DNA of 64,000 bases from an archaeon (GTDB taxonomy: Archaea > Nanobdellota > Nanobdellia > Woesearchaeales > GW2011-AR9), in contig JBDRMB010000029.1 of assembly GCA_043812455.1 (NCBI GenBank), positions 8,303-72,302 of the forward strand, given 5' to 3'. Below are positions 1,059 through 29,128 of this stretch, in pieces. Below the pieces are notes generated by a model that did not search any database, was not told the origin of the DNA, and worked only from the letters and a program-made list of their open reading frames with translations. Both the position numbers and the translations under genes were made by a program. The number at the start of each line of letters is the position of its first letter. Position 1 is the stretch's first letter.

Positions 1059-1202
1059 ATGAAACAGTTCACAATCACTAAAAAAATAGCAAAACATGGT
1101 AATCAAGCAATCATAGTTATACCTAGACTTATCGAGAAAGATCTTAAACCAGGAACTGTTGTTGAAGTAAAATTTAATATCCTGAAGGAGGCTAAAGAAT
1201 AA
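1059..1202 (+). CDS. small AbrB/MazE-type swapped-hairpin DNA-binding protein (47 aa), not in ORF track
   Basis: ATG 1059 to TAA 1200..1202 translates to MKQFTITKKIAKHGNQAIIVIPRLIEKDLKPGTVVEVKFNILKEAKE. The pattern hGNxxhhhIPxxhxxxLxLxxGDxVEh is typical of AbrB/SpoVT/MazE. Its stop overlaps the kinase ATG as TAATG. Confidence 0.6.
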   Translation: MKQFTITKKIAKHGNQAIIVIPRLIEKDLKPGTVVEVKFNILKEAKE

Positions 1203-3289: not shown

Positions 3290-4141
3290 AGCCATTAGAT
3301 GGTATACCATTAATGCTTCTTTACCTGTTTTCTTTTTCAGAAGGTTATATCCATCCCAATACAACAACTCTTTTTCTTTTTCGTGAACTTTTGCCAAAAG
3401 ATGAATGTCTTTGTTAAGATAAGACTTTTTTATAATTTCAAATATTTCTTGATTATCTTCTAAAAGTTTAATAATTTCCTTTGAAATGGGTATTTTACTG
3501 GTTAACAATTTACTGTTCAAATGATAAATTTCCCTTTGCCCTTGATTAATCAAAGTCATGAATGCCCATAAGAATTCAGAATTGTCTGCCTGAATTCTTT
3601 TTTTTGAAATAACTCTCCTACAAAAATTGTCAAATCTTTGTATTCTTTCTTCAACCTCAATAAATTCGTCATTCTTTACGTTACCGTTAATTCTATCTTT
3701 TGTTATTTCAAACAGTTCAGTAATATTATATAATATTTTTTTGAAGATTGTATCAAATTGGTCTGCAGTCGGTTCAGTTATATTTTCTATTGTGCAATAT
3801 CCCTTAGCTTTCTTTACAATTTCAAAACCCAATAGTCTTGTTTTTGTCACTTCGTTAAGAATTTTGAATTGAGATGGTTTGTCGTAAAATACTTTGACTT
3901 TATCGTAACCTCTTCGATAAGTGTTTGTAATTAATGTTCTTATTGATGATTCTGTTAAGTTTACTAATTTAATTTCTATTTCTGATTTAGTTTCAATTCC
4001 ACTTATTGAAATGATAAGGTTATTTCCAACCGCTTCGATATCAATCTCTGAACCTTTTTGGGCTTTGTTTTCTTTAACCCATTTGCTAGGTAAGCTGATC
4101 ATTAAAGTGCTTGTTCCTTGTTTTACTAGCTTTCTTCGCAT
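3236..4141 (-). CDS. AbrB-domain / PhoU-domain transcriptional regulator (archaeal phosphate-uptake-regulator-like)
   Basis: 301 aa. The N-terminus MRRKLVKQGTSTLMISLPSKWVKENKAQKGSEIDIE is a swapped-hairpin AbrB fold, followed by a helical PhoU-like body. The 3' end overlaps the kinase gene by 54 nt in convergent orientation. Confidence 0.75.
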   Translation of the reverse strand: MRRKLVKQGTSTLMISLPSKWVKENKAQKGSEIDIEAVGNNLIISISGIETKSEIEIKLVNLTESSIRTLITNTYRRGYDKVKVFYDKPSQFKILNEVTKTRLLGFEIVKKAKGYCTIENITEPTADQFDTIFKKILYNITELFEITKDRINGNVKNDEFIEVEERIQRFDNFCRRVISKKRIQADNSEFLWAFMTLINQGQREIYHLNSKLLTSKIPISKEIIKLLEDNQEIFEIIKKSYLNKDIHLLAKVHEKEKELLYWDGYNLLKKKTGKEALMVYHLMASIRNFYLANSPLSGLIM

Positions 4142-8690: not shown

Positions 8691-9695
8691 GTGATTCCTA
8701 TGATAAATGTTGCAATTAATGGCTTTGGAAGAATCGGCCGGAACATTTTCCGAGCTGCATATAAAGATAAAAAAATCAATTTTGTGGCAGTAAACGACCT
8801 TACTGATCCAAGCTGCTTAGCATACTTACTAAAATACGATTCTGCCCATGGCAGATTTCCAGAAAAAGTTACCAGCACTCAAAGTTCTCTTAAAATAGGT
8901 AACAAAACTTTGAAAGTCTTTGCACAAAAAGATCCTGAACAATTACCTTGGAAAGAATTAAAGATTGATGTTGTAATTGAAAGTACTGGATTTTTCTTGA
9001 CAAAAGAACTAGCAAGCAAACATCTTAAAGCCGGAGCAAAAAAAGTCTTATTATCAGCACCTGCAAAAGATGATGCCATCAAAACTTTTGTGTATGGAGT
9101 TAATCACAAAAAATATAACAAAAAAACTGACCATATTGTAAGTAACGCTTCCTGTACAACTAACTGCTTAGCACCAGTAGCAATGGTCCTTGACAAAAAG
9201 TTTGGTATCACATCCGGACTCCTAACGACAACTCACGCTTATACCTCAACACAACGGATAGTTGACGGTCCAGCAAAGAAATTTAGAAGAGGACGAGCGG
9301 CTGGAGTAAATATGGTACCTACCACAACCGGAGCAGCAATTGCAACTACCAAAGTTTTGCCAAACTTAATCGGAAAAATTGATGGCCGAGCAATCAGAGT
9401 ACCAATAGTTGACGGTTCGATTTCAGACTTTACTTGCCAATTGAAAAAATCTGTAACTACAGAACAAGTTAATCAGGCATTCAAAGATGCTGCGATGAAA
9501 GAACTGAAAGGTGTACTTGAATATACTGAAGAGGAACTAGTTTCAAGCGACATTCTCAGCAACCCTTATTCCGCAATCCTAGACAGCAAATTGACCAAAG
9601 TAATTAACAAGAACATGGTAAAAGTTTTTGCTTGGTATGATAATGAATGGGGTTATAGTAATAGAATGATTGACATGGTTAAGTGGATTGCTTGA
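8691..9695 (+). CDS. gap: glyceraldehyde-3-phosphate dehydrogenase, class I (bacterial/eukaryotic type)
   Basis: INGFGRIGRNIFRAA is an NAD-binding motif. The active-site signature is SNASCTTNCLAP. The C-terminus WYDNEWGYSNRM is typical of class I GAPDH. Confidence 0.9.
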   Translation: MIPMINVAINGFGRIGRNIFRAAYKDKKINFVAVNDLTDPSCLAYLLKYDSAHGRFPEKVTSTQSSLKIGNKTLKVFAQKDPEQLPWKELKIDVVIESTGFFLTKELASKHLKAGAKKVLLSAPAKDDAIKTFVYGVNHKKYNKKTDHIVSNASCTTNCLAPVAMVLDKKFGITSGLLTTTHAYTSTQRIVDGPAKKFRRGRAAGVNMVPTTTGAAIATTKVLPNLIGKIDGRAIRVPIVDGSISDFTCQLKKSVTTEQVNQAFKDAAMKELKGVLEYTEEELVSSDILSNPYSAILDSKLTKVINKNMVKVFAWYDNEWGYSNRMIDMVKWIA

Positions 9696-11582
9696 TCATT
9701 CAAAAAATATTCTTTTTATTCCTTTTAATTTTAATAACCTATTAACAAGAACTTCAATAAGTTCCATTTCTTTAGGTACAATTACAAAAGAACATTCAGA
9801 ATCTTGACCAAGAAGTTTAGCTTTCGCTTCCCGGACTTCAAACTTAGCATTGACAATGGTATGCAACAAGTCTGCTAATAATCCTGACCGGTTTCCTGCA
9901 ACTACATAAAATTTGAAATTTTTGCTAAGAGTATCTTTCCAACTTACTTTGACCCATCGTTCTTCCTCTTTTTCAATTTGCTCACACTCTTTTTTATGTA
10001 CAGAAATCAATCTTCTTTTAGTAACCAAACCTACAATTTCATCACAAGGAACAGGATAACAACATCTCGCTAGAACACAAGAGGCCTGCTTAAATTCGGG
10101 GGAATATACCAAAGTTTCGTACTCTTCCATAACTTGTGGTTTTAAGATCCGATAATGTAATGCTGGTAATTTTTGATATTTCTTCACACCTTTCCTGATT
10201 TTTTGTTTAGCTCTAGATGAGATCACAAATTTAAGCCAGTTACGTCTTGGCAACTGTTTCTTAGAAGTTAAGACTTCAATAACATCCCCTTTTTTTAATT
10301 GAGTACGTAACGGAACAAACTTACCATTTACATTAGCTCCGACAGTACGATTACCTACTTCTTCATGTACAATGTACGCAAAATCTAATACCGTTGCTCC
10401 CAACGGCAAGTATTTAACGTCACCTTTAGGGGTATAACAATAAATCTGATCATTGAAAACGTCAATCTTAACATTTTCCAGAAATTCCCTTGCACTGGCA
10501 TCTTTTTGAAGGCTGAGGATATCCTTCATCCACTCCATTCGTTTCTCAAAATCAAAATCAGATTTCAGACCTTTATATCTCCAGTGTGCAGCCAAACCTT
10601 CTTCTGCAATATCATCCATTTCTTTAGTTCTGATCTGTACTTCTAAGAACTTGTTACCTTTCCATTTCAGTGCAGTATGGATTGACTGATAACCGTTAGG
10701 TTTTGGATGAGAGATGTAATCTTTTAATCTTCCTTCAATCGGTTCAAAATTTTCGTGCAGAAAACCAAGTACTGCATAACAATCATTTATTGTTTTTACA
10801 ACTACTCTTATCCCTAAAAAATCATAAATGTCCTGTAACCGTTTTCCTTTCTTGACAACTTTTTTGTAAATACTGTAAATATGTTTAGACCTTCCTTTGA
10901 CGTCAATAAATTCAACATTTTTCAAGGATTTAATCTTATCAATAGCTTCATTAACATCATCATCTCGTTCTTCTCGTGAAGTTTCTAAAAAATCAGCAAT
11001 CTCTTGAAATTTTTTTCGATTGATTGCTTTGAAAGCCAGATCTTCCAGCTCAGTCCTGATTCTTTCCATCCCTAGACGATAAGCTAACGGAGCATAAATG
11101 TCAAGAACTTCTTGAGAAATTCTGATTTGTTCATCTTTAGGTAAGGCATCAATATCTCTTTGATTATCTAACTTATCAGCAAGTTTAATGAAAATAACTC
11201 GGACATCGTTCACTGTTGCCAAAAGCACTTTTCTAATCGTTTCTGCAGTAAGTTTAATGTTTCTTTTCCTGATGGTAGTTATTTCATCCACACCTTTAAC
11301 TAAAGAAAGAACATCCTGACCAAACTTTTCTTTAATTTCCTGATCGGTTTTATACTTACTTGTCCCATGTATGATTGCTGCCAAGATAAGTTCAGGAGCA
11401 GCACCATTTTCTGCTAATATTTTCGCTACGCGCAAACTATGATCAAAATAATCATCTCCAGCCAATCTTTTTTTATCGCTTAAGATTTCTCTAGCAAAAA
11501 TAATTCCTTCTTCAAACTTAGTGATATCTTTATCGGAATAATCTTTTGTGTCCAGAAATCGAAAGAATGATTGAATATCCAT
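9696..11582 (-). CDS. bifunctional (p)ppGpp synthetase/hydrolase, RelA/SpoT homologue
   Basis: 628 aa. The HD hydrolase region is HSLRVAKILA. The synthetase motifs are DFLGIRVVVKTINDCYAVLGFLH and DYISHPKPNGYQSIHTAL. A TGS-like region (VYSPKGDVKYLPLGATVLDFAY) follows. Confidence 0.85.
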   Translation of the reverse strand: MDIQSFFRFLDTKDYSDKDITKFEEGIIFAREILSDKKRLAGDDYFDHSLRVAKILAENGAAPELILAAIIHGTSKYKTDQEIKEKFGQDVLSLVKGVDEITTIRKRNIKLTAETIRKVLLATVNDVRVIFIKLADKLDNQRDIDALPKDEQIRISQEVLDIYAPLAYRLGMERIRTELEDLAFKAINRKKFQEIADFLETSREERDDDVNEAIDKIKSLKNVEFIDVKGRSKHIYSIYKKVVKKGKRLQDIYDFLGIRVVVKTINDCYAVLGFLHENFEPIEGRLKDYISHPKPNGYQSIHTALKWKGNKFLEVQIRTKEMDDIAEEGLAAHWRYKGLKSDFDFEKRMEWMKDILSLQKDASAREFLENVKIDVFNDQIYCYTPKGDVKYLPLGATVLDFAYIVHEEVGNRTVGANVNGKFVPLRTQLKKGDVIEVLTSKKQLPRRNWLKFVISSRAKQKIRKGVKKYQKLPALHYRILKPQVMEEYETLVYSPEFKQASCVLARCCYPVPCDEIVGLVTKRRLISVHKKECEQIEKEEERWVKVSWKDTLSKNFKFYVVAGNRSGLLADLLHTIVNAKFEVREAKAKLLGQDSECSFVIVPKEMELIEVLVNRLLKLKGIKRIFFE

Positions 11583-11631
11583 AACAAGAGTTATTGGCTT
11601 AGATAATAAAAAACTTTCTCAAAGTGTGGGT

Positions 11632-11785
11632 GTGTTCCAAGAGTCCACCAGCATCAGTCAAAATGCCTTCCAATTAAACATTAAGTGCGTCGCGAGGGGA
11701 TGCTCCCTACGGGAACGCAGCACAAACAACTTAAGAAGTAAGCATTTTGAAGCTGGTGGTCGAGCGCCAGCGAGATTTGGAACAC
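11632..11785. ncRNA. candidate structured RNA containing GC-rich element copy b; long-range helices GUGUUCCAA/UUGGAACAC and CCACCAGC/GCUGGUGG enclose the core GUGCGUCGCGAGGGGAUGCUCCCUACGGGAACGCAGCAC
   Basis: A perfect 9-bp complement pairs 11632-11640 with 11777-11785. A perfect 8-bp complement pairs 11645-11652 with 11752-11759. The GC-rich hairpin core lies at 11686-11723, in a divergent intergenic region. Strand and identity are unknown. Confidence 0.35.
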
Positions 11786-11880
11786 ATCCGTTAAGTGCGA
11801 AAGTTTTAAATACAATTTACCTAAAGAACTACTTCAAAGTGGGAACTTATAAGTTAAAATTAAGAAATCAGCAAGAAGGT

Positions 11881-12522
11881 ATGTTCAAAGCAGTAATTAA
11901 ATCTATTATTGATGATGTCACTCACAATTATGTTAGAGGAATGCCTTTAGAGTTACTTCCAGAAGGAAGGCTAACTTACGTACCCCAATCTCCAGCGATG
12001 ATAGAAATTACCGGTGCTGAAAGTTCAGGAACATTATCTTTAAACGTAACTCATCGGAATTATCATAATGCCTATGAAGAATTAAGATGGGTAAAAGATC
12101 TTGTCATTGATGACATTGTAACTTTGTTTGAAAAGATAGAAGAGTTTGATGGTGCTTTAGATTACTTAAATCGTAAACCAGATAATTCAAAAACTTTTGG
12201 TTATGAATTTGATCTTAATAGTTGTCAACTAAGAAGTGCAGCAGAATATTTTGGCGAATTTGACCAACCAGGTTGGCGATGGTCAGAAAATAGAAGATAT
12301 CTCATTGAAGGTGAAAAGTTAGCTGGTCAAATGTCTTTGATCAGACCAGCTTACAAATATTTAGCTATAGTTTTAAGTGAATTAGAATCCCAATTTCGTC
12401 ATCACCAAACAACTACCAGTGATCAAAGAAAAATTGAACCATTCCTAAAGGTTTTACAAAGAATAAAAGATCCAAGAAACAAAGCTAAAACAATCAAAAA
12501 CCTTAGCAGAAGATTAAGTTAA
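11881..12522 (+). CDS. hypothetical protein (start trimmed from ORF-track 11626 to Met at 11881)
   Basis: Upstream of 11881 the ORF-track protein is Arg/Ser-rich and simply reads through the GC-rich structured element. From MFKAVIKSIID onward the composition is ordinary. No known motifs. Confidence 0.4.
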   Translation: MFKAVIKSIIDDVTHNYVRGMPLELLPEGRLTYVPQSPAMIEITGAESSGTLSLNVTHRNYHNAYEELRWVKDLVIDDIVTLFEKIEEFDGALDYLNRKPDNSKTFGYEFDLNSCQLRSAAEYFGEFDQPGWRWSENRRYLIEGEKLAGQMSLIRPAYKYLAIVLSELESQFRHHQTTTSDQRKIEPFLKVLQRIKDPRNKAKTIKNLSRRLS

Positions 12523-12524
12523 AA

Positions 12525-13556
12525 ATGAGACCAATAATTTCCAGATATCTTTCAAGTATTGCATTTATGGCTGCTTTAGCTCTAAGTCCAGGTTGTAATA
12601 AAGGTCCAGACTTTGAAACCAAACCAATAGAAATTATTGCAGATGCTGAAGAACAATTAGAAGATCTTTTACCAACAGAATGCCAAGGACGAACAACTGA
12701 ATACTTGCTTACTGAACAGGTTCTTCTTACTTTAAGAAAAAGTCCAAGAATAAGTGCAACCAAAGTTGGAGATGTTGAAAGATTTGATACATTAGAATTA
12801 TGTTCCAATGAGGAAAAGGAAGGTTGGCACGTCATCAGGAAAAATGGTACTGAAGGTTGGGCAGAGTTTGCTTTAGATGATATAGTCTTAAGTGAATGTC
12901 AAGGCCAAGATATATACATTGTTTCAAACAGTGCAAGAAATGGAATCACAATTTACGATAAAGCATATGGTAGTAAAGTATTAACCTATTTTAATCCTAG
13001 AGAAGTTTTCACTGCATGTGATAATATCACAGGTGGCGGAAGAAGAATGATAAAATTAAAAAGTGGGTCTATAGCATGGGCAAATATTGAACCAGGTTCA
13101 ATAATTGAGAAAGGTAAATTTGATAGAAGAATAGCTAATAACGTACTGATACCAAATCATGTTCGATTATATGAAAATAGTGAATCAAAAATCAGAACAT
13201 TCAAATTCTGCCAAACGAACAATATTGAGTGTGGTTATGATGACGGGTTTAATGTTGGAGATACTGTTTATTTTCAATTTAATTTTTTAGCTGATACTCC
13301 AGGAAGAAGAGTAGACTTAACTAAAAATTATAGAGTAATTAATCCTGAAGGAGAAATTATACGCGATTTTTCATCACAAGGTAAAATATATCAATTTCTT
13401 AGCCAGGATGATAATCATGGTTTTTCTAATATTCTAGTTGGTGGTAATAATTTTACATTAAGTTCTGACAGTATCCCGGGAACATATTTTTTAGTGGTTA
13501 CAATTAAAGATCACAATAATAAATATTATTTTCAAGAAGCTTTTGTTGTAAAATAA
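12525..13556 (+). CDS. secreted lipoprotein (lipobox ALALSPGC), member of a three-copy family with a C-terminal beta-sandwich-like module
   Basis: The N-terminus is MRPIISRYLSSIAFMAALALSPGCNK. It is a paralogue of the 50912..52351 protein (IEIIADAEEQLEDLLPTECQG versus IEIIEDAEKQLEEVRPLDCSN). The C-terminal module FKFC..C..GD.V.F.F...NYR.I.P.GE....PGTY.L.V also occurs in 18079..18651. Confidence 0.55.
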   Translation: MRPIISRYLSSIAFMAALALSPGCNKGPDFETKPIEIIADAEEQLEDLLPTECQGRTTEYLLTEQVLLTLRKSPRISATKVGDVERFDTLELCSNEEKEGWHVIRKNGTEGWAEFALDDIVLSECQGQDIYIVSNSARNGITIYDKAYGSKVLTYFNPREVFTACDNITGGGRRMIKLKSGSIAWANIEPGSIIEKGKFDRRIANNVLIPNHVRLYENSESKIRTFKFCQTNNIECGYDDGFNVGDTVYFQFNFLADTPGRRVDLTKNYRVINPEGEIIRDFSSQGKIYQFLSQDDNHGFSNILVGGNNFTLSSDSIPGTYFLVVTIKDHNNKYYFQEAFVVK

Positions 13557-13557
13557 T

Positions 13558-14949
13558 CTATTCATAATATTCACTTTTCTTGATTACCCAATTAACATAT
13601 TCTGCTTTGATAACTTTACCATCATTATTAACATCAAGATCACTATTCTTGCTATAAGCATCAGAACCTCGAGAAAATAAAACATAATCATCATTTTCTC
13701 CAACAGCATTTGGCCAGATTACTGCCATAGCAACATCACCTAAATCCTGCCCATCAAAGTTTGGATGGTGTTCTTTGATATCAACATAATATTTTTTAAC
13801 ATATTCTAACTGTTGAATTGCTGTCATACCTGATAAGATGCTAGTCGTTGTATCTAGGCCTTTAGCTGTACTTTCAACAAACTGAATTAAACCAACAGCA
13901 CTACTTCCGGGATTTTTTGCTGTCGGACTGAAAGTTCCTCCTGTTTCAAATTTCATTACTGCCAATAAATGTACAGGATTAATGTCAAGCTCTCCACAGA
14001 TTTCATTCAATTTGTCAATAAACCCAAGTTGATTATCAGTTAGATTATTCATATCTTCTTCCAATGTTCCGGAGTATACATTAACTTCAGAACTTAACAC
14101 TACAACATCTTCTGTTTTGCCAGTATAAATATTTTCAAAAGATTTCCAAGTAGATCTTACTGGATCCCAAACGGTATCTTCAGTCCCAATTATATTTGCT
14201 ACAGAAAGCCAGACCCTATCAAGTTCTTGACAAGTTTCCTGATTTTTACAATTTTCCTGTCCGGCAGATATTGTTGCACCAGCGATTTTGTTAACATCCC
14301 TATCAGCAGCAGTATTCCCACTTCTCTGCACTGAAGATTCTAACTTATCTCCAGTAGTGGTTTCTGGTGTTTCACTTGAAGTTATTTGTTCAGTTTCAGT
14401 ATAACCAAGACAAGGTGTTTCAGTTAAACTAAATGGATGGTACCCTTCTCCAACATAAAACTCATAGTCAGGAACTTCATAAACTGCAAATACCTTACTC
14501 TTATAGGTATTTTCTGTTTGTGCCGCAGGTTCAGATTCTACAAAACCTTCATTAAGATAAGAAAAATCAGCAATAAAACCGGTATTACCTAATTCTAAAC
14601 ATATTTCTGCTAACTGTTCTGTTGAAAATTCAGAATCCATTGGATAAATTATAGTATTATCAAGAAACTCACTACAATCATAATAGTTCCCATAAAGATA
14701 ATATTTGCCTACTTCTTGGCCTGCAACTTCTAAAAGTACATAATTATAATACCAACCAGAGCCATCTTCTTCATTAATTACCATTAAATATTTGCCATTT
14801 TCTACATGTTTAAAACAACCATTATCAGCCACACCATTCAGATCGTCATCAGTATAAAGAGTATCACTATAACTCAGAACCAGCATCGGAATAACTAGTA
14901 AAGAAAAAAGAACCATGGCCGACTTTCTGTTAATTTTGTTAAATTTCAT
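13558..14949 (-). CDS. secreted protein with C-terminal lytic-transglycosylase (SLT/GH23-like) domain
   Basis: There is an N-terminal signal or TM segment (AMVLFSLLVIPMLVLSYS). The C-terminal LAVMKFETGGTFSPTAKNPGSSAVGLIQFVESTA matches the SLT pattern E-[ST]..F.....N..G.AxGLMQ...T. It shares a CKxQ(E/D)TC(Q/E)ELD(R/K)VW module with the neighbouring gene. Confidence 0.6.
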   Translation of the reverse strand: MKFNKINRKSAMVLFSLLVIPMLVLSYSDTLYTDDDLNGVADNGCFKHVENGKYLMVINEEDGSGWYYNYVLLEVAGQEVGKYYLYGNYYDCSEFLDNTIIYPMDSEFSTEQLAEICLELGNTGFIADFSYLNEGFVESEPAAQTENTYKSKVFAVYEVPDYEFYVGEGYHPFSLTETPCLGYTETEQITSSETPETTTGDKLESSVQRSGNTAADRDVNKIAGATISAGQENCKNQETCQELDRVWLSVANIIGTEDTVWDPVRSTWKSFENIYTGKTEDVVVLSSEVNVYSGTLEEDMNNLTDNQLGFIDKLNEICGELDINPVHLLAVMKFETGGTFSPTAKNPGSSAVGLIQFVESTAKGLDTTTSILSGMTAIQQLEYVKKYYVDIKEHHPNFDGQDLGDVAMAVIWPNAVGENDDYVLFSRGSDAYSKNSDLDVNNDGKVIKAEYVNWVIKKSEYYE

Positions 14950-14951
14950 TT

Positions 14952-16775
14952 TTAATTTATACCCTTAACAACATCGCAATATCCTTCCCGACTGGTGTAC
15001 CTTGAATATTCATAAGGATTATCCGAGATTTCACAATTATCCTTAAACTCAAACCAACTGGTAGAACCATATTCAAAATGCCAGGTTTCTCCAGTATATC
15101 TCACCCAACCTTTACTGTACATGAAATTGTATAATTCTTCCCGTGGCAACTGCTTGCCACTTGAATCTCTTAACTGGATATCTACTGCAGACCCACTTAA
15201 ATGAGGGCAACTAGTGTAAGGGTCTGAACCAGTTGGATCACAAACTAAATCGGAATTGTGATACTGGTTCGAGTCGGAACAACCTTCCCAGAAATAATAT
15301 TGACCATACAAATTTCTATAAGCATAAGACACATAAATATTTTTCCCTTGAGTAGCAACCTCTTTGCCAACCGCTTCTAAAGCTGACCTCAAGTCAGATG
15401 TCCCATAACATGCCACTCCGCTTCCGCAAGTAATTCCATCTAACCCTTCAAGACTAACAAATCTTCTTTCAACAGCTTCTTGAGTTTCGTACGCTCGTCC
15501 TGCTCTTAAATAATCACAATCAAGACTTTCAGGAACAGCACTTAAATCAAAAGATGTGGGTGGTGAAGGTCCAGTAACACTCGAAGTGGTTGGACTGTAC
15601 TCAATTTGCCCATACAATTCATCCCAAGTTTTCCAAGCACCGCCCTCTGGTCCGAAACCCCAATACTTTTCACTGTTACTAGAAGATATTGCACCAGAGA
15701 TTAAACCCCACACTTTATCAAGTTCTTCACAAGTATCTTGATATTTGCAAGATTGAGCATAAACTTGTATTACTGCACCTGAACCTCGGTTAGTTACATA
15801 AGTCCCCACAACATTACCAGACTGCCATGATATTGACATTGTACCAATATCTTCATGATACATGTCCAGTGGCAGATAATTAATATTTGGATCAAAACTC
15901 TGTGCTACTGCAGGATCAAAATCAGTTATCCCTAATTCATTTTCAATAAAACTTTTAGTATTATCATAAGGATCAGGCATATATCCAAATCTAACCGGAT
16001 AACTTATCAAAAGATTTAATTCAACATTAGGATTATCTTTCACGTAACTGTTCCAAACAGATTCAGTTTGACTACCATAATCTGCATCTGAAAAAACCAC
16101 TCGGTCAACACCAATCTCAGCCATATCCCCATAAGATGCTGCTCTTCTTAACGCTGAACCACCAGCACTATGACCAATCATTGAAATTCTTCCAGAAGGA
16201 ATTTGTTGAACTCCTGATAATTGCCCAATTATTCCAATCACTTCATCATTTAGTTTACCTAAATCAGAATCTTGGCTGTTCCATACCAATGCATACTGTG
16301 AATCTACATGTCTTACTCCCCCTTCATCACCAGCAGACCATGGCAGTTCAGGGAAAATTATTACAAAATTTCTATTATCATCAATCATCTGTTTAATTTG
16401 TGGGGCTAACCGTTTATTGAAATCGTCATATTGATTAGTTCCGTCAGCATAATAAAACCCTTCAATACCATGAAAAAAATAAATTTTTTCAACACTTTTA
16501 GTGAAGTCAATATTGCTAGGAACAAAAATTATTGTCAATCTTCCAGCAGTACTTAACAGATAATTTTCATTAGCACCATTATTAGAAGAAACTCCGATCC
16601 AAGTCTTTCCGCAAACACTATCATCAGTTAAAGCCTTTTCCCATTCAGACAGATAAGTGTTCAAACGAGAATTGCTAGTTCCAGTCTCAGATTCTAAGCA
16701 ACCAGCACTAATAACACTACTACTTAACATAACCAAAAAAACAACTACAATCAAAACCAACAAAACTTTCCTCAT
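14952..16775 (-). CDS. secreted two-domain hydrolase: alpha/beta-hydrolase (GHSAG nucleophile elbow) plus C-terminal peptidase M15 (VanY / L-Ala-D-Glu peptidase-like)
   Basis: The signal peptide is [25 protein letters not shown]. The lipase/esterase elbow is [14 protein letters not shown]. The M15 zinc motifs are [12 protein letters not shown] (SxHxxGxAxD) and ETWHFEY (E.WH). Confidence 0.65.
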
Positions 16776-18037
16776 CTTTCACTCATGAACCTCTCAATAC
16801 GCAAAAGTTGATTATACTTAGCAGTCCGCTCCCCTCTACAAGGTGCACCAGCTTTAATCTGACCGCAACCAATACCAACTGCAAGATCAGCAATAAAAGG
16901 GTCAGTAGTCTCGCCACTTCTGTGAGACACCATCACTTGCCATTTGTTATCGTAAGCCATCCGTACAGCATCAAGAGCTTCAGATAAAGTTCCAATCTGA
17001 TTAACTTTCATCAACAGACAATTGCAGCTGTCTTCTTTGATTGCAATTTCAATCCGATTAACGTTAGTTACAGTAAGATCGTCGCCAACAACTTGTACTT
17101 CTTTATCTGCAAAATCTTCGCTCAACCTTTTCCTAAGCTTAGCAAAACTTTTGAAATCTTCTTGCTGGAAGGGATCTTCGATTGAAACTATTGGATATTT
17201 TCCAACCAACTGCAAATAATAATCTATTAATTGGTCAGCACTTTTCTTCCTAGGCAGTTTGTAATAACCACCACGACCACGTTTAACAAAAAATTCCGAA
17301 GCTGCTGCGTCCATGGCAATATCAACATAACCGGTATGACCTGCCTTAGCAATAGCAGTCTTTAACAATTCCAATGCTTCTTCAGCTTTCTTAACCGGTG
17401 GAACAAATCCGCCTTCATCACCAACATTGGCAGCATTCTTACCGTACTTCTTTTCAATAACTTTTTTCAAATGATGATATATCTCAGAACCCATCCGTAA
17501 AGCTTCACTAAACTTATCTGCTCGCGGTGAAATCATAAATTCTTGAAATCTAAGAAAACCTTCGGCATGTTTTCCACCATTGATTACGTTAAAGAATGGT
17601 CTTGGCATTAACAGTTCATTATCTCTTGACAAAAGATTGTTAATATATTCTGGCAAAGTTAAGTTATAATAATCAGCACCTGCACGTGCACATGCTAAAC
17701 TAATACCCAAAGTTGCGTTTGCACCTAATTTTGATTTATTGGTTGTTCCATCCAACTTGATCATGAAATCATCAATTTCACGCTGTCTGAATACTTCAAC
17801 TCCAATAAGTTTTGGAGCAATTTTCTTTTCAACATTTTTTACGGCATTCAATACACCTTTACCAAGATACCTGCTTCCACCGTCACGCAATTCCAGATCT
17901 TCATGTACACCAGTTGAAGCTCCGCTAGGTACTGCTGCAGAAAACTTACCATCAGTTGTGATAACATCCACTTCAATAGTAGGATTGCCTCTACTATCAA
18001 GAATTTCCATTGCTTTAATTTCTTTTATTATCGCCAT
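16772..18037 (-). CDS. eno: enolase (phosphopyruvate hydratase)
   Basis: 421 aa. The signature is SHRSGETTD, and the enolase N-terminus is [23 protein letters not shown]. Confidence 0.9.
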
Positions 18038-18078: not shown

Positions 18079-18651
18079 TTAATATGAAACAACGATCACA
18101 TCAAATGTTTTTGAATAAACTACTTCTTTCTCTAACATAGGATTTTCTATCACTAAATCTAAAGTATAAGTTCCAGGATAATCTTCATTGGAAAGAATGA
18201 AATAATCTGAATAGTAAACTGTTTCTTCATCTTTGTTACTAGTAGTTTCATAATAATAATTGTTTTCTTCTTCAACTTCTAACAATACTTTTCCGGAAGG
18301 ACTAATTAACCGATAATTTTCCACTAAGATGATATCCCCATAATAAGGTGTGGTTAAAACTTCAAAAAAGAAATGAACTTCATCACCTGGAAGAAAATTT
18401 AAAGCAGCAGTATTACACCCAGTAGCACTGCTATATTCATCACAAAACTTGAAATTTTGGATCACAACATTGCCACCACGACCAAAAGGCATGAATTCTG
18501 TATTGAGCATACTTGCACCAGTGTTAGAAGTTTGAGTTTCTTCTACGTTCAATAATCCTAACTTAACTAGTCCAAACACTGCTGCACTAGTTAACACCAC
18601 TGTAACTAAGACTACCAATGCTTCTTTTGCAATTGTTGCTTTTTTGTTCAT
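18079..18651 (-). CDS. membrane-anchored protein with the family beta-sandwich-like module (start trimmed to Met at 18651)
   Basis: From MNKKATIAKEALVVLVTVVLTSAAVFGL (TM), then FKFCDEYSSATGCN...GDEVHFFFEV...NYRLISPSGKVL...PGTYTLDLVIEN. The trimmed start lies 7 nt after the stop of the giant upstream gene. Confidence 0.5.
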   Translation of the reverse strand: MNKKATIAKEALVVLVTVVLTSAAVFGLVKLGLLNVEETQTSNTGASMLNTEFMPFGRGGNVVIQNFKFCDEYSSATGCNTAALNFLPGDEVHFFFEVLTTPYYGDIILVENYRLISPSGKVLLEVEEENNYYYETTSNKDEETVYYSDYFILSNEDYPGTYTLDLVIENPMLEKEVVYSKTFDVIVVSY

Positions 18652-18658
18652 TTTTAAT

Positions 18659-21600
18659 TTAATCACAACCATATCCGGAACTGTCATAATCATCAAGATT
18701 AATTTTGTCAGGCAATTCTTTTCCAACTTCACACATATACTTCCTGATCTTCTGGAACTCGGCAGTGTTAATGTCATCTTCATCAAAATCAAGTAAGGCA
18801 TAACCGTTAGCGTCCATCCGTAAAAAGAAGCGGTCAAATAACGGTTTGTAATCTCCTGATTTCCAATTACTGCCCAACTGAGCAATGACTGCTGCCATAT
18901 AATAATAAATTCCTATTGCTTCATCCAAATATCCTCGTAGTTCATCCATTTTCACAATGGCAAGCTGCATAACATCTTCATATCTTTGATTCTCAAAATA
19001 AGTATAAATCTCGCTAGTAGCTTCTTGAACTTCATGCTCTCTCTGAACCGTGATACTCTCAGGATGGCTAGATTTTCCTAAAGCAACAGTAGGCACTCTG
19101 TCTTTAGCACCGTAACATGAACCTAAACTGTTAGGTTCAAGTAAATCTGCAGTTACAGTCACTGTTCTTACATTGGAACTTGTACTTGACCTGCCTTGCT
19201 GGGTATTATACACACACGCTCCAGTACCAGTGGCACTGCCCAACACTCCACTTACTTGCATGTTGCCTACTGTAAATACAATATTATTAATCTCATCAAT
19301 GCCAAACTCATCATCACCGTTAGAGTTTACCAACTTACCACCTGTTAACTGGTATTGACTTCCAGCAACACTAATTCCTGCAGCAGAATTTACATTATCT
19401 AACACATAATCATTTCCACTCTTAGAAAAACCAAACGTGACTTCTTGACCTGGAGCAACTGTCCCGGAAGTATAAGAAGCGTCAATACTTCTTGGACAGC
19501 CACTATTACTTTTACTGCTAATCCTGTCCAGACCAGCATTTGAACCGCCAAACATTTCTTCATTAACAGTACCTAGACTAAACACCGGACCCATAAACCC
19601 GGCAGCACCAGCTGGTATTTCATAACTTCTTTCTCTGTTAGCTTCATCAATACCAGCAGAACTGGTCTTTAACCTTAAACAATAATTTTCTCCGTCAGTG
19701 TTCATGTGAACCTTAACTTTAATTTCATCGCCCATCAATAACATGTTAGGAGTATCACAGTCAACATAAGTACCAGCATTTTTATCATAACAAGTGATGT
19801 ACGGATCTTGCAGATAAGCCAGACCTTCACCATAGAACAGACCTGCCAGTTCTGGACAGGAATATTGTCCAGTAGAAGCTTCAACTTGACAACTTACTAC
19901 ACCAGGGGGTGAAGCGTCAGTGATCGGGAAATAAAACAAACCATCTTTATATCCCTCATCAAAACAGGCATCTGGATTCTCGTAAGGATCTAACTGTAGA
20001 TGAACAACTACATGATCGTACCTGAAATGTTTGTCAACCTTTTGCGGGGATTCAATTGGCAATTCTACCACACTACCCTGTTCTAAGTTAGAACCACGAC
20101 CACCATCAAGATAATGTATTCGTTCGCTAGCTAATGGTGAAGTACTACCAACGTTAAGACAATCACAACCTTGACTGCCACAATCAACTCCTGGATGACC
20201 CATATCTTCCGGTCCGACACATTTCAAATAAGTTTGGTATGAGGCAATTTTACAACCTGGGAAGATTACCGTTCCAACTTCATAATTGAACTGCGCAGTT
20301 AAAGTTTGAGGATTATAATTAGTTAGTTCTCTGAACGCTGGGAACACTAATACACTAGATTTCATTGGAACTGAATAAGCTACATCTTCAATAAAGTCAA
20401 AGCCCATTGGCCAGTCAAAACCAAAGGCCGCCATACAGATTGATTCTGCTACACCTTGCACTCCGCTGGCAAAATATTCGTTAAGTGCAGAATTGCCATA
20501 ATCACTTTGCAAGTCATCAATAGAATATTGCATTGAATCATAGATTGATTCTGTTCCGGCACCAAAAAGTTCAGCAGCTGTAGTTTGATTACCTTTGTTT
20601 GCATCTTTCAAACTTAATGGACTACACTTGCCACTGAAAGAAGCAATAAGTTTGTAAATCAAACCGCAAACGTGTTGCGAGAATAAAGTTTTACACATTC
20701 CAGCGTCATGGAATCCAGTATATTTCGCTTCTTCAATACATCTTCTTAATCCGTCTAAGATGCTACGTAACATTACTAACCGTGCTCTTATTCCAGTTAA
20801 ACATACTGTCTGGAATGCACTAATATGTTGAGTGTGCGGGTTAACTTGAGTTTTCTTTTTCAATTCGCTAGGTACTGCATAATCTGGAAGATAATCTAAC
20901 CCGAATGCACCAGATAGGTCTCTGCCGTCATAATATCTTAATTCAGAATAATGTGTTCCTTTGAAACCTTTACTTTCAGTGTATAATCGATCTTGTCGGT
21001 AACTGAACTTCTCTGCAACACCATCTTCCTTTAATGCTTCTCTATATCCAGTAGTTGTAATTTTCTTTTCGGAACCTTCACAGACACATTGGTACTTTTC
21101 CCCATCACTGCCTACAAAACAATCTTTAGTATGACCGCCAGAGATCATATTACCTTCCATTTTTCTTGAAGGACCAACTAATTGGTCGTCTTCTCCTACT
21201 CTATAACAAGAACCTCCTGTTGTACTAGAGATAATTTCAGATGGTGCCTCACTAGGGTCAACAACAATATCTGCGTCAGCGCTAGCAGCCTGCCCAGTAA
21301 TTGCTTCATCTGTAGAAGCAGTAGCAGTACTTACAATTCCACTAACCGAACCATCTTTAATTGTATACCCATCAGTCACTGCTTTATAACCAGAATTCTT
21401 TGCACAAACTGCTTTACAGGTAGTGTCAGGAGCACCACAATAACCACCGTTAGCTTCTTTGTAAACTAATATTGTTTGGGATTCAAAACCGGTTGACAGA
21501 CCATTACCACTCACTATCTTTTCTAACCGATAAATTCCGTTTTCTTCACTGACAAAATTATCAGGGTTCTTACCATTAAAATAATATAAAGAACCACTAA

Positions 21601-24139
21601 TGGTACCACCAGTACTACTTATCACATTTTCATTATCAAACCGTTCCCAACATTCTCCTGAAGCAGGTATCGCTGTAGTGTCAACTCGATGAATACTAGG
21701 CAAGGTATTTTTCACATACTGCCCGCAATTCTCAATTTTTCGTAACGGGATACAACCAGAAGTTACTGCACAACCTTTCTGAGTGGCAATCGCAGCTTCA
21801 ATCTCTTCTTCTGTTTTTTCTGAAGTCCATCCAGCAGGTACTGCTCGGCATAAGAACCGATCACATGTCCAACGATATGCTTGGTCCAATGCTTCTTCCG
21901 CTTTCCAGAGATTTGCAGTGTTTTCACATTTATCTTCTAAATTGTGTTTACCATCATTATAATCAGAAGGTAAATTGTTAGCGCCAGGATTTCCTGCTGC
22001 TAACTCATCCCACTTTTCCCTAGTCGTATCAAGATACAAATCACTTTGATCCAACGGACATCTTTCATCTTCAGGCTTATTTCTAGATGTAAGATATTCT
22101 GCTTTAGAACTGAATATCCTTGCGAACCTAATCACGGTCTTAACACCGACAGAAACGAAACAAGTAACACCAGTAACTAGAATAACTTTTTCCAGCACCG
22201 GTAAGATCTTGTCAATAACTGTTATCGTACCGTTAAGAACTTTGATTCCTTCATTGGCCATCCAGTCAGGAATAAGTTTCTCGCTGTCTACTGGAATGTC
22301 AACAAAATATCCTAAATCATAACAACTTGTTTGAGTTTTAGATTCTCCTAAGTTGCCTAAAGAATCATACTCTTGATAATTAACCATAACCTTTAACGGA
22401 AATACTACCTGCCGTTTCTTAAAATCGTTCCAGAAATCATCGTCAACATAACTTAAACCTTCTGTGGTTAACAAGTCCCATGTTAAGTAATATGCTGTCT
22501 TGTCGGGACTGTCTAAAACTTTTGGTCCGGAACTAGGTAAGATTGCACAACCCACACCAAACTGTTCATCATCCATCATTGACTGTGTACAAGCTTTCTC
22601 AAACCGGACACTGTTAACCTGGAAAGCGTCCCTATTTTCTTCACCGGTGACTATATCGCGTTCAGCAATTCCACTGCCAACATAACTTAAATTGAATACT
22701 GCAGTTGCAACTTCTCGGCCATCTTCAATCAAATCAGGGTTTAATCTCATTGGTTGCTGGAACTTAGCAATGCTAGTAATCTGAAAATCAAAATTTGACG
22801 AGTAACAGGTATGGACAGTAACCACATCATGCCAATAACCGCTTTTTCCACTTTTGTCAACAGAGATAAGATAAACGTTATAGGTCCATTCTTGTGCTTG
22901 ACTTACAGATTCGATTGGATAAATTGAAACACCTTCTAAGCCTGAAGGTACCAGTTCAAACTCAAAATCTTCAAAACTTAACGGTTCAGTTTCAAAGTTA
23001 ACTTTTTCAAACGTAAAATTTCCGTCCTCACCAGCTTCTACTGCAAACCACGGTCCCCTAAAGTCAGGTTCGTATTGATAACTTAACGGTCGGTAAATGA
23101 ATAGATATACTGTGGAACCTGGTTCTGTAGTTCCATGAAGATTAGTTGTTGCTCTGTTTTGATAATATTCATTCCCTTTTTCAAATTCTGCTTCAACGTC
23201 TGGCGGTTGAGTGTCAGCATCAATCTCAATCTTTTCTCTTGCCACCCAACCTGCTCGGTCAGTCGCTTCAATAGTAATTTTATTAATGCCTTCATCAAGA
23301 TGTAATTCTTCACTAAAACTAGTTCCTTCAGTATTGTAAATTGAATTTCCATTTACAAATATTTCAATACTACATTCTTCATTGACTGCTCCTTTCAATG
23401 TAACATGATCTTCAAGTGCAATTTCGCTATAAGTCTCAAGAGCAATTTCTGGATGAGTATTATCAGAATAAACTACTCCTGAATATGTTTGGACCTGACC
23501 GTCAGTTGTGGTGGCTTCTAAGTCTAGAACATTACTTTCGTCAGCATTCAAAGGTACATTCTGGAACTGAAAAGTTCCATCCGAAGCAGCAGTTTTCTTG
23601 GCATGATATCCGCCATTAACATAAACTCTAACTTCAGCGTTTGCCAGAGTACTTCCATTAATGTCAAAATATTCTCCAGCAACAATTTCTGGATGTTCCA
23701 CGCTCAAACTTAACGAACTGCTGCCAGTAGTTACAGTTTCTCCAGAACTTTCTCCACTAGCTTCAGTCGTTCCCAAAGTCTGGAAATTATAATTATTGCC
23801 AGAATTGTTCTCTGCCACGCCGTTGCTCATAACATAATAATAATAGTCTGTTCCTGGCATCAATCCGTCAATTGCAAGACTATGATCAGTAACAGCACTT
23901 GTATCACTCTCTACTCTTGTTAAACTGAACTCATTATCCCCATAATAAATAAAACTGTCTGCTTCTTCATCAGTGTTCCATTCAATAATTATTCCAGTTT
24001 CAGTAAGGTCCTTTTCAGTAATTCCAGAAATTTGTATTGCACTGACTAATGGTAGATTAACAACTAGAATCACTACTAAGATTGTCCAAAGTTTCCAATG
24101 CATACCAAACTTTTTATTTTCTACCATTTCATAAATCAA
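18659..24139 (-). CDS. giant secreted cell-surface protein (1826 aa), N-terminal FN3-like domain, Ig-like repeats, Cys-rich central and C-terminal region
   Basis: The signal peptide is WKLWTILVVILVVNLPLVSA. An FN3-like (purple-acid-phosphatase N-terminal type) segment is ISGITEKDLTETGIIIEWNTDEEADSFIYYGDNEFSL...PGTDYYYYV. The rest has many Cys pairs and Thr/Ser/Gly/Asn-rich segments. No catalytic motif recognised. Confidence 0.6.
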   Translation of the reverse strand: MIYEMVENKKFGMHWKLWTILVVILVVNLPLVSAIQISGITEKDLTETGIIIEWNTDEEADSFIYYGDNEFSLTRVESDTSAVTDHSLAIDGLMPGTDYYYYVMSNGVAENNSGNNYNFQTLGTTEASGESSGETVTTGSSSLSLSVEHPEIVAGEYFDINGSTLANAEVRVYVNGGYHAKKTAASDGTFQFQNVPLNADESNVLDLEATTTDGQVQTYSGVVYSDNTHPEIALETYSEIALEDHVTLKGAVNEECSIEIFVNGNSIYNTEGTSFSEELHLDEGINKITIEATDRAGWVAREKIEIDADTQPPDVEAEFEKGNEYYQNRATTNLHGTTEPGSTVYLFIYRPLSYQYEPDFRGPWFAVEAGEDGNFTFEKVNFETEPLSFEDFEFELVPSGLEGVSIYPIESVSQAQEWTYNVYLISVDKSGKSGYWHDVVTVHTCYSSNFDFQITSIAKFQQPMRLNPDLIEDGREVATAVFNLSYVGSGIAERDIVTGEENRDAFQVNSVRFEKACTQSMMDDEQFGVGCAILPSSGPKVLDSPDKTAYYLTWDLLTTEGLSYVDDDFWNDFKKRQVVFPLKVMVNYQEYDSLGNLGESKTQTSCYDLGYFVDIPVDSEKLIPDWMANEGIKVLNGTITVIDKILPVLEKVILVTGVTCFVSVGVKTVIRFARIFSSKAEYLTSRNKPEDERCPLDQSDLYLDTTREKWDELAAGNPGANNLPSDYNDGKHNLEDKCENTANLWKAEEALDQAYRWTCDRFLCRAVPAGWTSEKTEEEIEAAIATQKGCAVTSGCIPLRKIENCGQYVKNTLPSIHRVDTTAIPASGECWERFDNENVISSTGGTISGSLYYFNGKNPDNFVSEENGIYRLEKIVSGNGLSTGFESQTILVYKEANGGYCGAPDTTCKAVCAKNSGYKAVTDGYTIKDGSVSGIVSTATASTDEAITGQAASADADIVVDPSEAPSEIISSTTGGSCYRVGEDDQLVGPSRKMEGNMISGGHTKDCFVGSDGEKYQCVCEGSEKKITTTGYREALKEDGVAEKFSYRQDRLYTESKGFKGTHYSELRYYDGRDLSGAFGLDYLPDYAVPSELKKKTQVNPHTQHISAFQTVCLTGIRARLVMLRSILDGLRRCIEEAKYTGFHDAGMCKTLFSQHVCGLIYKLIASFSGKCSPLSLKDANKGNQTTAAELFGAGTESIYDSMQYSIDDLQSDYGNSALNEYFASGVQGVAESICMAAFGFDWPMGFDFIEDVAYSVPMKSSVLVFPAFRELTNYNPQTLTAQFNYEVGTVIFPGCKIASYQTYLKCVGPEDMGHPGVDCGSQGCDCLNVGSTSPLASERIHYLDGGRGSNLEQGSVVELPIESPQKVDKHFRYDHVVVHLQLDPYENPDACFDEGYKDGLFYFPITDASPPGVVSCQVEASTGQYSCPELAGLFYGEGLAYLQDPYITCYDKNAGTYVDCDTPNMLLMGDEIKVKVHMNTDGENYCLRLKTSSAGIDEANRERSYEIPAGAAGFMGPVFSLGTVNEEMFGGSNAGLDRISSKSNSGCPRSIDASYTSGTVAPGQEVTFGFSKSGNDYVLDNVNSAAGISVAGSQYQLTGGKLVNSNGDDEFGIDEINNIVFTVGNMQVSGVLGSATGTGACVYNTQQGRSSTSSNVRTVTVTADLLEPNSLGSCYGAKDRVPTVALGKSSHPESITVQREHEVQEATSEIYTYFENQRYEDVMQLAIVKMDELRGYLDEAIGIYYYMAAVIAQLGSNWKSGDYKPLFDRFFLRMDANGYALLDFDEDDINTAEFQKIRKYMCEVGKELPDKINLDDYDSSGYGCD

Positions 24140-29089: not shown

Positions 29090-29098
29090 TTTTATTAC

Positions 29099-29128
29099 CT
29101 CCAAGTTTCCACCTACTTAAACTTGGAG
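29099..29128 (-). promoter_or_regulatory. 10-bp perfect inverted repeat (CTCCAAGTTT / AAACTTGGAG) whose 3' arm contains the SD of the LAGLIDADG gene
   Basis: The arms are 29099-29108 and 29119-29128 with a 10-nt loop. The SD GGAGGT (minus strand) lies at 29097-29102. The predicted mRNA hairpin would occlude the ribosome-binding site. Confidence 0.3.

Follow-up and report, generated by a model that had tools for sequence, protein, structure and literature searches.

Two adjacent genes on the minus strand of a 64,000-nucleotide stretch of archaeal DNA (contig JBDRMB010000029.1 of assembly GCA_043812455.1; hereafter the window) encode, in our reading, exported enzymes of a DPANN archaeon that act on bacterial murein and that form the effector cassette of a locus organized around a giant surface protein, by which a bacterial wall would be breached locally. 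We put the probability of this reading at roughly 0.65. Gene 1 (13558-14949; 463 residues) specifies a signal anchor, an orphan N-terminal domain, a Trp-rich module and a lytic transglycosylase (LT) domain, and gene 2 (14952-16775; 607 residues) specifies a signal peptide, an alpha/beta hydrolase domain, the Trp-rich module and an M15 peptidase domain. Gene 2 lies upstream, and 2 nucleotides separate it from gene 1. A first-pass annotation, made by a model from the letters and a list of open reading frames (ORFs), had described the two as a pair of secreted peptidoglycan hydrolases sharing a linker, and both ORFs are present on the minus strand exactly where it had placed them.

Domains and catalytic residues of the two proteins

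The C-terminal domain of gene 1 (residues ~305-460; 13570-14037, minus strand) is an LT of the phage baseplate-hub type, the activity of which is predicted from sequence and model. Its single sequence retrieves PDB entry 9udh, a 'bacteriophage lytic transglycosidase', with an E-value of 6.6e-30 (phmmer), its profile does so at 1e-78, and the AlphaFold (AF2) model of the domain, with a predicted local distance difference test score (pLDDT) above 90, matches the same structure in Foldseek (E=1.2e-10, TMt 0.78, 39% identity), followed by the cyanophage A4 pre-ejectosome protein and MltF. In PHROGs the domain corresponds to phrog_196, i.e. 'baseplate hub' (9.5e-40); it is encoded in 298 phage records (tblastn), and its nearest non-archaeal homologs, 50-54% identical, bear the Pfam E217_GP41 baseplate-hub domain. 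Fusion partners of the LT domain in homologs comprise LysM, PG_binding_1, M23, M74, Amidase_2, CHAP and tape-measure domains. Against Pfam SLT (PF01464) the single gene 1 sequence scores 17.9 bits, below the gathering threshold of 21.3, which is cleared by homologs with the same LT domain (P0004 with 21.4, P0009 with 27.1 and P0012 with 33.3 bits). The motif string KFE335TGG...SAVG353LIQ356F...T includes Glu335 (FETGG) and G353-LIQ356, and A431-Y432..N435 lies further on; over 20 sequences F334, E335, G353, L354, I355, Q356 and N435 are invariant and Y432 is nearly so. The SLT/GH23 assignment, originally made from this signature, is upheld by the strong match to 9udh, the agreement in fold and the presence of the catalytic Glu in 20 out of 20 aligned sequences.

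Virion LTs of phages (gp41 of Pseudomonas phage E217, with PF22759 and an SLT-like C-terminal domain; 9udh, for which a literature search found no paper; the cyanophage A4 pre-ejectosome, 9k2v) thus have 39-54% identity, the fold and the motifs E-[ST], G-L-[IM]-Q and A-Y..N in common with gene 1, and the gene 1 product would likewise attack from outside. Unlike them, it is encoded in a stable archaeal chromosomal locus and has, instead of a baseplate or ejection-protein body, a signal anchor, the module and an orphan N-terminal region (residues ~28-205; 14335-14868, minus strand). This region cannot be aligned with that of the ortholog by BLASTP (a forced alignment gives 26% identity), the N-terminal 200 residues found no homolog in sequence searches and fold poorly in the AF2 model, and we regard it as a candidate target-recognition region.

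The C-terminal domain of gene 2 (residues ~450-607; 14955-15428, minus strand) is predicted, with support from several sides, to be a VanY/VanX/LdcB-like M15 (LAS) zinc peptidase, because three libraries converge on this assignment, the family profile reaches VanY, VanX, LdcB and YodJ, and five residues (Arg487, His525, Asp532, Glu563 and His566) are invariant. In Pfam the protein scores 20.3-24.6 bits against Peptidase_M15 (E=2.5e-5; cutoff 27) and 14.6-17.8 bits against VanY (E=2.9e-3; cutoff 25), and its ortholog is below threshold for both as well (1.4e-6 and 3.6e-6, respectively); NCBIfam DdpX is matched at 1.6e-5 and the VanX structure 1r44 at 5.5e-3, in an alignment that places SH..GSA.D and E.WH on the zinc site. 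A homolog search with the M15 domain alone recovered nothing, the gene 2 protein itself included, and the sole close homolog of the domain among 5.8 billion proteins is the ortholog; more copies were found within the relatives of the alpha/beta domain, namely P0070 (33% identical, E=1e-8) and several proteins with a VanY domain. The 9-sequence M15 alignment (A6) shows no variation at any of the five residues, and its profile retrieves from PDB 4mph (a DD-carboxypeptidase family protein; 6e-11), YodJ/LdcB, VanX, VanY and VanXY. The zinc ligands (His525, Asp532 and His566), the catalytic Glu and the Arg align with those of VanX, VanY and LdcB, and the M15 assignment holds, including the zinc ligands on which it had been made to depend. 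Compared with the known M15 LAS peptidases (VanY, LdcB/YodJ, VanX), the domain presents the Arg, His-x6-Asp and Glu-x-x-His elements in the same order, but it is very divergent and fused to an alpha/beta hydrolase. The motifs quoted for the two proteins in the first-pass annotation are all present (in gene 2: G201-H-S203-A-G205, H525-LSGSAV-D532 and E563-T-W-H566), apart from a slip in spacing: the Ser stands three rather than two positions before His525, so that the motif reads SxxHxxGxAxD and not SxHxxGxAxD.

The N-terminal domain of gene 2 (residues 33-320; 15816-16679, minus strand) can be predicted with confidence, from model and conservation, to be an alpha/beta hydrolase with a His-Gly oxyanion element (His102-Gly103) and a Ser-Asp-His triad (Ser203 in GHSAGG, Asp230 and His307). 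It has no match at threshold in Pfam, NCBIfam or the PDB sequences; its relatives show sub-threshold Pfam matches to Esterase (PF00756; 2.6e-5 to 1.6e-2) and to Abhydrolase_6. The AF2 model of the domain (pLDDT 70-93) is matched by Foldseek, with probability 1.0, to CE1 feruloyl esterases, polyhydroxybutyrate (PHB) depolymerases, a poly(Asp) hydrolase and acylaminoacyl peptidases, at 10-15% identity. When 1.84 billion cluster representatives were searched exhaustively with a profile, 363 relatives emerged (243 at E <=1e-10), in which GHS203AGG, D230 and H307 are kept in 84-100% of the family members (His102 in 157/157, Gly205 in 144/144, Ser203 in 120/143, Asp230 in 122/141 and His307 in 49/49). 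The alpha/beta-hydrolase call made from the GHSAG elbow is therefore corroborated by a confidently predicted fold and a triad that is conserved throughout the family. With the CE1/esterase-D hydrolases (feruloyl and acetyl-xylan esterases, PHB depolymerases; PF00756) the domain shares the fold, the G-x-S-x-G and H-G motifs and the order Ser-Asp-His; what sets it apart, next to its low identity to the solved structures, is that it belongs to a small family that is almost only found fused to murein hydrolases, in Woesearchaeota-type archaea and one Patescibacteria metagenome-assembled genome (MAG). For actinophage esterases/LysB the resemblance is one of analogy only.

The distribution and the company of the domain bear on its substrate. 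Species-representative genomes that have it comprise 9 Woesearchaeota, Nanoarchaeota or unclassified archaeal MAGs, one MAG labelled Methanosarcinales (L011) and one of the Patescibacteria. Nearly all Pfam matches among 63 representative relatives are murein hydrolase domains (VanY 13, M15_4 8, M23 6, Muramidase 5, M74 5, SLT 2 and Amidase_2 1). Neither the alpha/beta nor the M15 domain had a match in 50,697 phage records (tblastn), so that the LT alone is phage-like. That the domain keeps company with murein hydrolase domains is the main argument for a substrate in the bacterial envelope. Most likely it takes an ester-linked group off the wall or envelope, and the O-acetyl group on C6 of N-acetylmuramic acid (MurNAc) is the leading candidate.

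Two relatives deserve separate mention. The Patescibacteria MAG (JBAZZL010000002.1, L010:3165-5639) encodes a T4SS_pilin-like N-terminus, an M23 domain and the same rare alpha/beta domain, so that the domain is common to ultrasmall archaea and ultrasmall bacteria. In a Nanoarchaeota MAG (L008:1-2163) the alpha/beta domain, the module and M15_4 are followed by a C-terminal segment that by eye resembles phage lysozyme/transglycosylase (…AAGRYQF…) and that has no Pfam match.

As for the localization of the two proteins, signal peptides were called from hydropathy and from a comparison of the N-termini with those of relatives. Apart from one segment at the N-terminus, neither protein has a hydrophobic stretch, which is consistent with export and with the earlier description of the pair as secreted. 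In gene 2 this segment is the predicted signal peptide (residues ~1-25; 16701-16775, minus strand). A lipobox (VISAG-C) was considered for gene 2 and downgraded: family members have classical signal peptides of the AxA type, followed after a few residues by a conserved Cys, and the Cys that follows 'VISAG' is more likely, judging from these sequences, the conserved N-terminal Cys of the family than part of a lipobox.

A shared module and an archaeal locus around a giant surface protein

The segment that the two proteins share is similar beyond chance: residues 209-275 of gene 1 and 318-388 of gene 2 align in BLASTP with E=1e-9 (32% identity over 71 residues), and a hidden Markov model (HMM) of the module finds one copy each in more than 30 other proteins. 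The copy in gene 1 spans residues 232-276 (14122-14256, minus strand; CKNQETCQELDRVW...VW...TWKSFENIY) and that in gene 2 residues ~341-389 (15609-15755, minus strand; ...YW...AWKTWDELY). Over its ~45 residues the module follows the pattern C-x(4,5)-C-x-[EQ]-[IL]-D-x-[VA]-W ... [VI]-W ... W-[KQ]-[ST]-[FW]-x-x-[LIV]-Y, in which two Trp are invariant and an Asp is nearly so, and the Cys pair is missing in about half of the copies; AF2 models it at a pLDDT of 27-65. Of 154 proteins of the alpha/beta family 27 contain it, as do further neighbouring genes, and never in more than one copy. This copy directly follows the signal peptide or stands between domains, and in every case it precedes the first wall-cleaving domain. 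Because a four-domain protein (e.g. in L003) also has a single copy, it is not a generic inter-domain linker, and the label 'linker' that was first given to it should be replaced by that of a conserved, one-per-protein module.

The wider context of the pair is conserved as well. Genes 1 and 2 close an operon-like minus-strand string of ~12.8 kb that includes, further upstream, enolase (16772-18037), the stop of which overlaps the start of gene 2 by 4 nucleotides and which has the same neighbourhood in relatives; p190 (18079-18651), with a signal anchor and a beta-rich domain and with Met79 of a 268-residue ORF as its true start; a giant Cys-rich surface protein of 1826 residues (18659-24139); and p730 (24136-26328), a membrane-anchored protein of 730 residues, conserved upstream of the giant protein, for which no Pfam match was found. 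Upstream of enolase the gaps between the minus-strand genes (p190, giant protein, p730) amount to 0-41 nucleotides. The giant protein combines a signal peptide and Ig/fn3-like N-terminal domains with 43 Cys and a single central hydrophobic helix (residues 644-671); a Pfam scan gave no SLT match for it.

In at least 8 related genomes the same order is found, i.e. p730, giant protein, p190 and then a hypervariable cassette of murein hydrolases, and p190 takes the place between giant protein and cassette in each related locus. The closest relative (L001/L002) has the giant protein, p190, enolase, gene 2 and gene 1, followed by RelA/SpoT, glyceraldehyde-3-phosphate dehydrogenase (GAPDH) and malate dehydrogenase (MDH). 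Seven further loci (L003, L005, L007, L009, L014 and the contigs of P0041 and P0044) have a giant homolog (35-40% identity) and a p190 homolog (27-43%), directly followed by one to three hydrolase genes and then usually by enolase and RelA/SpoT; the hydrolases that could be scanned all bear the module. No two genomes have the same cassette content, which is drawn from SGNH esterase, CE4 deacetylase, DUF218, SLT, phage-type LT, Amidase_3, M15_4, VanY-like M15, M23, M74, metallophosphatase, Exo_endo_phos and the alpha/beta domain. L007 offers a parallel to the window, with a module-SLT protein adjoining one that combines the module, M15_4 and the alpha/beta domain.

In L006, P0059, P0071 and P0072 the giant protein is itself fused to alpha/beta, M74 or phosphoesterase domains; it is the Cys-rich part, i.e. 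the C-terminal 1150 residues, that is fused to wall hydrolases in other genomes. These 'Rosetta-stone' fusions together with the conserved neighbourhood imply that the enzymes are functionally linked to the giant surface protein. Every free-standing cassette protein with a scannable sequence bears exactly one module, whereas the fused forms lack it (<=0.3 bits with the HMMER filters off). As a consequence, the module most likely tethers the free enzymes to the apparatus of the giant protein at the cell surface, which this pattern of fusion and neighbourhood suggests and does not prove. A more specific variant, in which p190 would be the exclusive adaptor of module-bearing enzymes and be lost upon fusion, was rejected: it fails on L016, in which p190 and a neighbour with the module stand alongside a giant protein that is fused.

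The pair is part of the chromosome of a Woesearchaeota/Nanoarchaeota-type DPANN archaeon. The window contains the small subunit of replication factor C (RFC), aRF1/Pelota, TrmB and an archaeal-type phenylalanyl-tRNA synthetase (PheRS), and the NCBI records of proteins identical to gene 2 (MFH1396467.1, 'hypothetical protein') and gene 1 (MBU1111227.1, in nr a 'lytic transglycosylase domain-containing protein') are MAG proteins with the organism labels 'Nanoarchaeota archaeon' or 'archaeon'; the archaeal origin is concluded from both, and relatives are found in Woesearchaeota MAGs. Scans of the window for tRNAs and Rfam families were empty and provided no RNA marker for its taxonomy, and a scan for sigma-70 promoters and terminators was uninformative, as the model does not suit an archaeon. 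An origin of the pair from a mobile element or prophage was rejected, since synteny of the locus with housekeeping genes is kept in several genomes.

Proposed action on bacterial walls and competing explanations

In the mechanism that we propose, both proteins would be exported via Sec and work outside the archaeal cell. The LT of gene 1, which is of the type with which phages, in their baseplate hubs and ejection proteins, penetrate the wall from the outside, would cut the glycan strands, with Glu335 as acid/base, cleaving MurNAc-beta1,4-GlcNAc (N-acetylglucosamine) with formation of 1,6-anhydroMurNAc. The peptidase of gene 2, with zinc held by His525, Asp532 and His566, Glu563 as the base and Arg487 to stabilise the substrate, would target stem peptides that contain D-amino acids, and the alpha/beta hydrolase would strip an ester-linked group such as the O-acetyl on MurNAc C6. 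Lytic transglycosylases require a free C6-OH on MurNAc and are blocked by O-acetyl groups or phosphodiester-linked polymers, and the recurrence of carboxyl- and phospho-esterases in the cassettes can be rationalised in this way. Genes 1 and 2 would then be the variable 'effector cassette' of the p730/giant/p190/hydrolase locus, and their module would dock the enzymes on the surface apparatus, so that the wall of a bacterium with which contact is made, be it host or prey, is breached locally. That bacterial murein is the target, as had been proposed for the pair at the outset, is favoured by the almost exclusive occurrence of the alpha/beta domain and the module with M23, M74, M15_4, VanY, Amidase_2/3, Muramidase and SLT domains; a clustering with pseudomurein-active or unrelated enzymes was not observed.

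The rate of evolution of the pair offers a further indication. Relative to L001 the neighbouring genes are 82-92% identical, with a nonsynonymous substitution rate (dN) of 0.06-0.10, GAPDH excepted (58%). Gene 2 is 59% identical with an overall dN of 0.31 (0.19 for the alpha/beta and 0.43 for the M15 domain), the LT domain of gene 1 is 79% identical (dN 0.14), and the N-terminal domain of gene 1 has essentially been replaced (dN 0.88). The ratio of dN to the synonymous rate (dS) is ~0.1-0.25 in the catalytic domains, values that are rough as dS is near saturation, and implies that the genes are functional, yet they evolve 2-4 times faster than their surroundings, as expected of proteins that face a changing target.

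Several points besides this roughness weigh against our reading. The substrate assignments all derive from homology, and on single sequences the Pfam scores for SLT and M15 are under the curated thresholds; the same holds for the abhydrolase family, and the three domain assignments draw on the deeper comparisons given above. The M15 domain is modelled at a pLDDT below 50, from an input alignment with one homolog only, and the solved structures closest to it are those of carboxypeptidases and dipeptidases, enzymes that shorten stem peptides and do not cut cross-links, so that a cutting of the sacculus by this domain is not established and the 'complete sacculus-cutting kit' of the first-pass annotation goes further than the data allow; the M15 family includes endopeptidases as well. 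Some relatives add an SGNH or CE4 esterase to the alpha/beta domain, which weakens the case for an O-acetyl-esterase and makes a lipid or lipoprotein ester a live alternative substrate. The tethering by the module derives from a pattern of presence and absence with only four fusion cases, and L016, in which the giant protein is fused to the alpha/beta domain while p190 and the module-bearing neighbour are kept, indicates that the rule is not a simple one. Finally, the literal topology of the giant protein, i.e. a signal peptide and a central helix, places its C-terminal half in the cytoplasm; the helix may, on the other hand, not span the membrane of the producer.

A more elaborate form of our reading, which we consider conceivable and rather doubtful, is that of a hitherto undescribed contact-dependent wall-breaching machine, in which the giant membrane-associated scaffold together with p730 and p190 would display interchangeable, fast-evolving effectors, docked non-covalently via the module in a way that resembles cohesin and dockerin. 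A new esterase family among them would remove the groups by which the glycan is protected. If true, it would be direct genomic evidence that this lineage of Woesearchaeota lives or preys on bacteria and not on archaea. The known systems with a comparable logic, namely the loci of type VI secretion system VgrG/PAAR effectors, polymorphic toxin cassettes and the cohesin-dockerin tethering of cellulosomes, are analogies only, as they have no sequence or structural relationship with the locus. The resemblance lies in variable lytic enzymes that occupy a fixed position beside a large conserved surface component, and in a single small conserved tag on each enzyme, dispensable upon fusion to the scaffold. 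Since the producer has no murein, immunity genes are not expected.

An unlikely alternative is that of freely secreted scavengers that digest necromass murein or shed muropeptides and so provide an auxotrophic archaeon with amino acids and amino sugars, with neither host contact nor a connection to the giant protein. In its favour, the M15 domain stands nearest to D-Ala-releasing carboxypeptidases and dipeptidases, the pair shares its tight gene string with enolase, and dead-cell peptidoglycan has been proposed as an amino acid source for Pacearchaeota (PMC11537232). Against scavenging stand the adjacency of the genes to a giant surface protein across many genomes, the repeated fusion of hydrolase domains to it, an LT of the type with which phages pierce walls, and the marked acceleration and the domain swapping of the cassette, which suit an arms race better than bulk nutrition.

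Fast evolution and modular shuffling equally recall bacteriocins, and archaeal peptidoglycan hydrolases kill bacteria, with Nanoarchaeota being rich in them according to the parts of Strock 2025 used here (PMC12352652). That the pair would be diffusible antibacterial weapons, i.e. bacteriocin-like lysins used in competition rather than in symbiosis or predation, is nevertheless less likely again: neither protein has a recognised cell-wall-binding domain, the locus is chromosomal, stable and syntenic instead of plasmid-borne or patchy, and the association with the giant surface protein argues for use upon contact.

Action on something other than murein (remodelling of the own envelope, the wall of an archaeal host, inactive relics of phages or bacteria, or a mis-binned bacterial contig) is very improbable, despite the archaeal hosts of the DPANN cultivated so far, the sub-threshold Pfam scores and the one alpha/beta relative in the Methanosarcinales-labelled MAG, because the catalytic residues remain intact and evolve under purifying selection, both flanks of the pair on the contig are archaeal, with synteny in several archaeal MAGs, and no murein synthesis genes were seen among the scanned ORFs of the window. 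Pseudomurein in particular was rejected as the target on its chemistry and on the murein-hydrolase company of the domains: it contains N-acetyltalosaminuronic acid and only L-amino acids, and hence has neither MurNAc nor the D-Ala-ending peptides on which VanY/LdcB-type enzymes act.

Relation to published systems and further features of the window

The notion of DPANN archaea that attack or bind the walls of bacteria is not new to the literature. In the sections drawn on here, Castelle 2021 (PMC8204110) describes large extracellular LT-bearing proteins in Woesearchaeota and Pacearchaeota (fam00969, with the LT inside the giant protein), infers bacterial partners and cites earlier reports of such proteins in three genomes; Vigneron 2022 (PMC9723730) reports GH23 enzymes and pore-forming toxins in 'vampiristic' Woesearchaeota; and Strock 2025 (PMC12352652) combines a survey, in which Nanoarchaeota are especially gene-rich, with experimental killing of bacteria by haloarchaeal M23 enzymes. 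As far as these sections go, the window agrees with the three studies in the lineage, in wall-directed extracellular enzymes and in the link to very large surface proteins. The survey of Strock 2025 demands, in the part considered, both a Pfam catalytic domain and a Pfam wall-binding domain; the catalytic matches of the two proteins described here are sub-threshold and no LysM, PG_binding, SH3 or similar domain was found in either, which is why a survey of this type would miss them. Four features appear to be new relative to the same parts of these papers: the family of the alpha/beta domain, the module with its single copy per protein, the conserved but, in its cassette, hypervariable p730-giant-p190-cassette locus together with its fusions, and the accelerated evolution of the cassette.

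The locus speaks to the question whether the hosts or prey of Woesearchaeota- and Pacearchaeota-type DPANN are bacteria. To our knowledge, cultivation with a partner has been achieved for no DPANN of this group that encodes such enzymes. The locus provides testable parts, i.e. two small expressible enzymes with defined catalytic residues, which are also candidates for new antibacterial lysins, and a conserved tag with which partners can be fished. The chemistry that the enzymes accept (peptidoglycan chemotype, O-acetylation) could indicate the bacterial target, and the HMMs of the module and the alpha/beta domain can serve as markers to find the arsenal in metagenomes, including the members that are missed by Pfam-based surveys.

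Convergent with gene 1 lies a plus-strand gene (12525-13556) for a protein of 343 residues, in which a lipobox-like signal (LSPGC) is combined with two SH3b-like repeats (Pfam SH3_3, below threshold at E=1.2e-3) and, at the C-terminus, a domain of ~110 residues that is paralogous to p190 (BLASTP, E=1e-9); the product may be an accessory lipoprotein that binds the wall. This gene and a second one on the plus strand (11626-12522), which together lie between gene 1 and RelA/SpoT, are absent from the closest relative. The RelA/SpoT homolog (9696-11582, minus strand) is full-length, with HD_4, RelA_SpoT, TGS and ACT domains, is found in the same position in at least 4 related genomes, and suggests by its domain composition a bacterial-type (p)ppGpp metabolism in a DPANN archaeon. 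The low identity of the adjacent GAPDH (8691-9695, plus strand) to the copy of the closest relative (58%) suggests gene replacement or unusually fast evolution.

Elsewhere in the window, LAGLIDADG_3 homing-endonuclease-like matches are present in the ORFs 27947-29104 and 31103-32524, both on the minus strand, one of which adjoins a ThiI-like gene that looks truncated (30492-31127). A 664-residue protein with a transglutaminase-core (Cys protease-like) domain is encoded at 32803-34797 (plus strand). Near the start of the window a eukaryotic-type Ser/Thr protein kinase of 695 residues (1202-3289, plus strand) adjoins the gene for a protein of 301 residues with a MazE/AbrB-like N-terminal domain (3236-4141, minus strand), and both are kept in L001.

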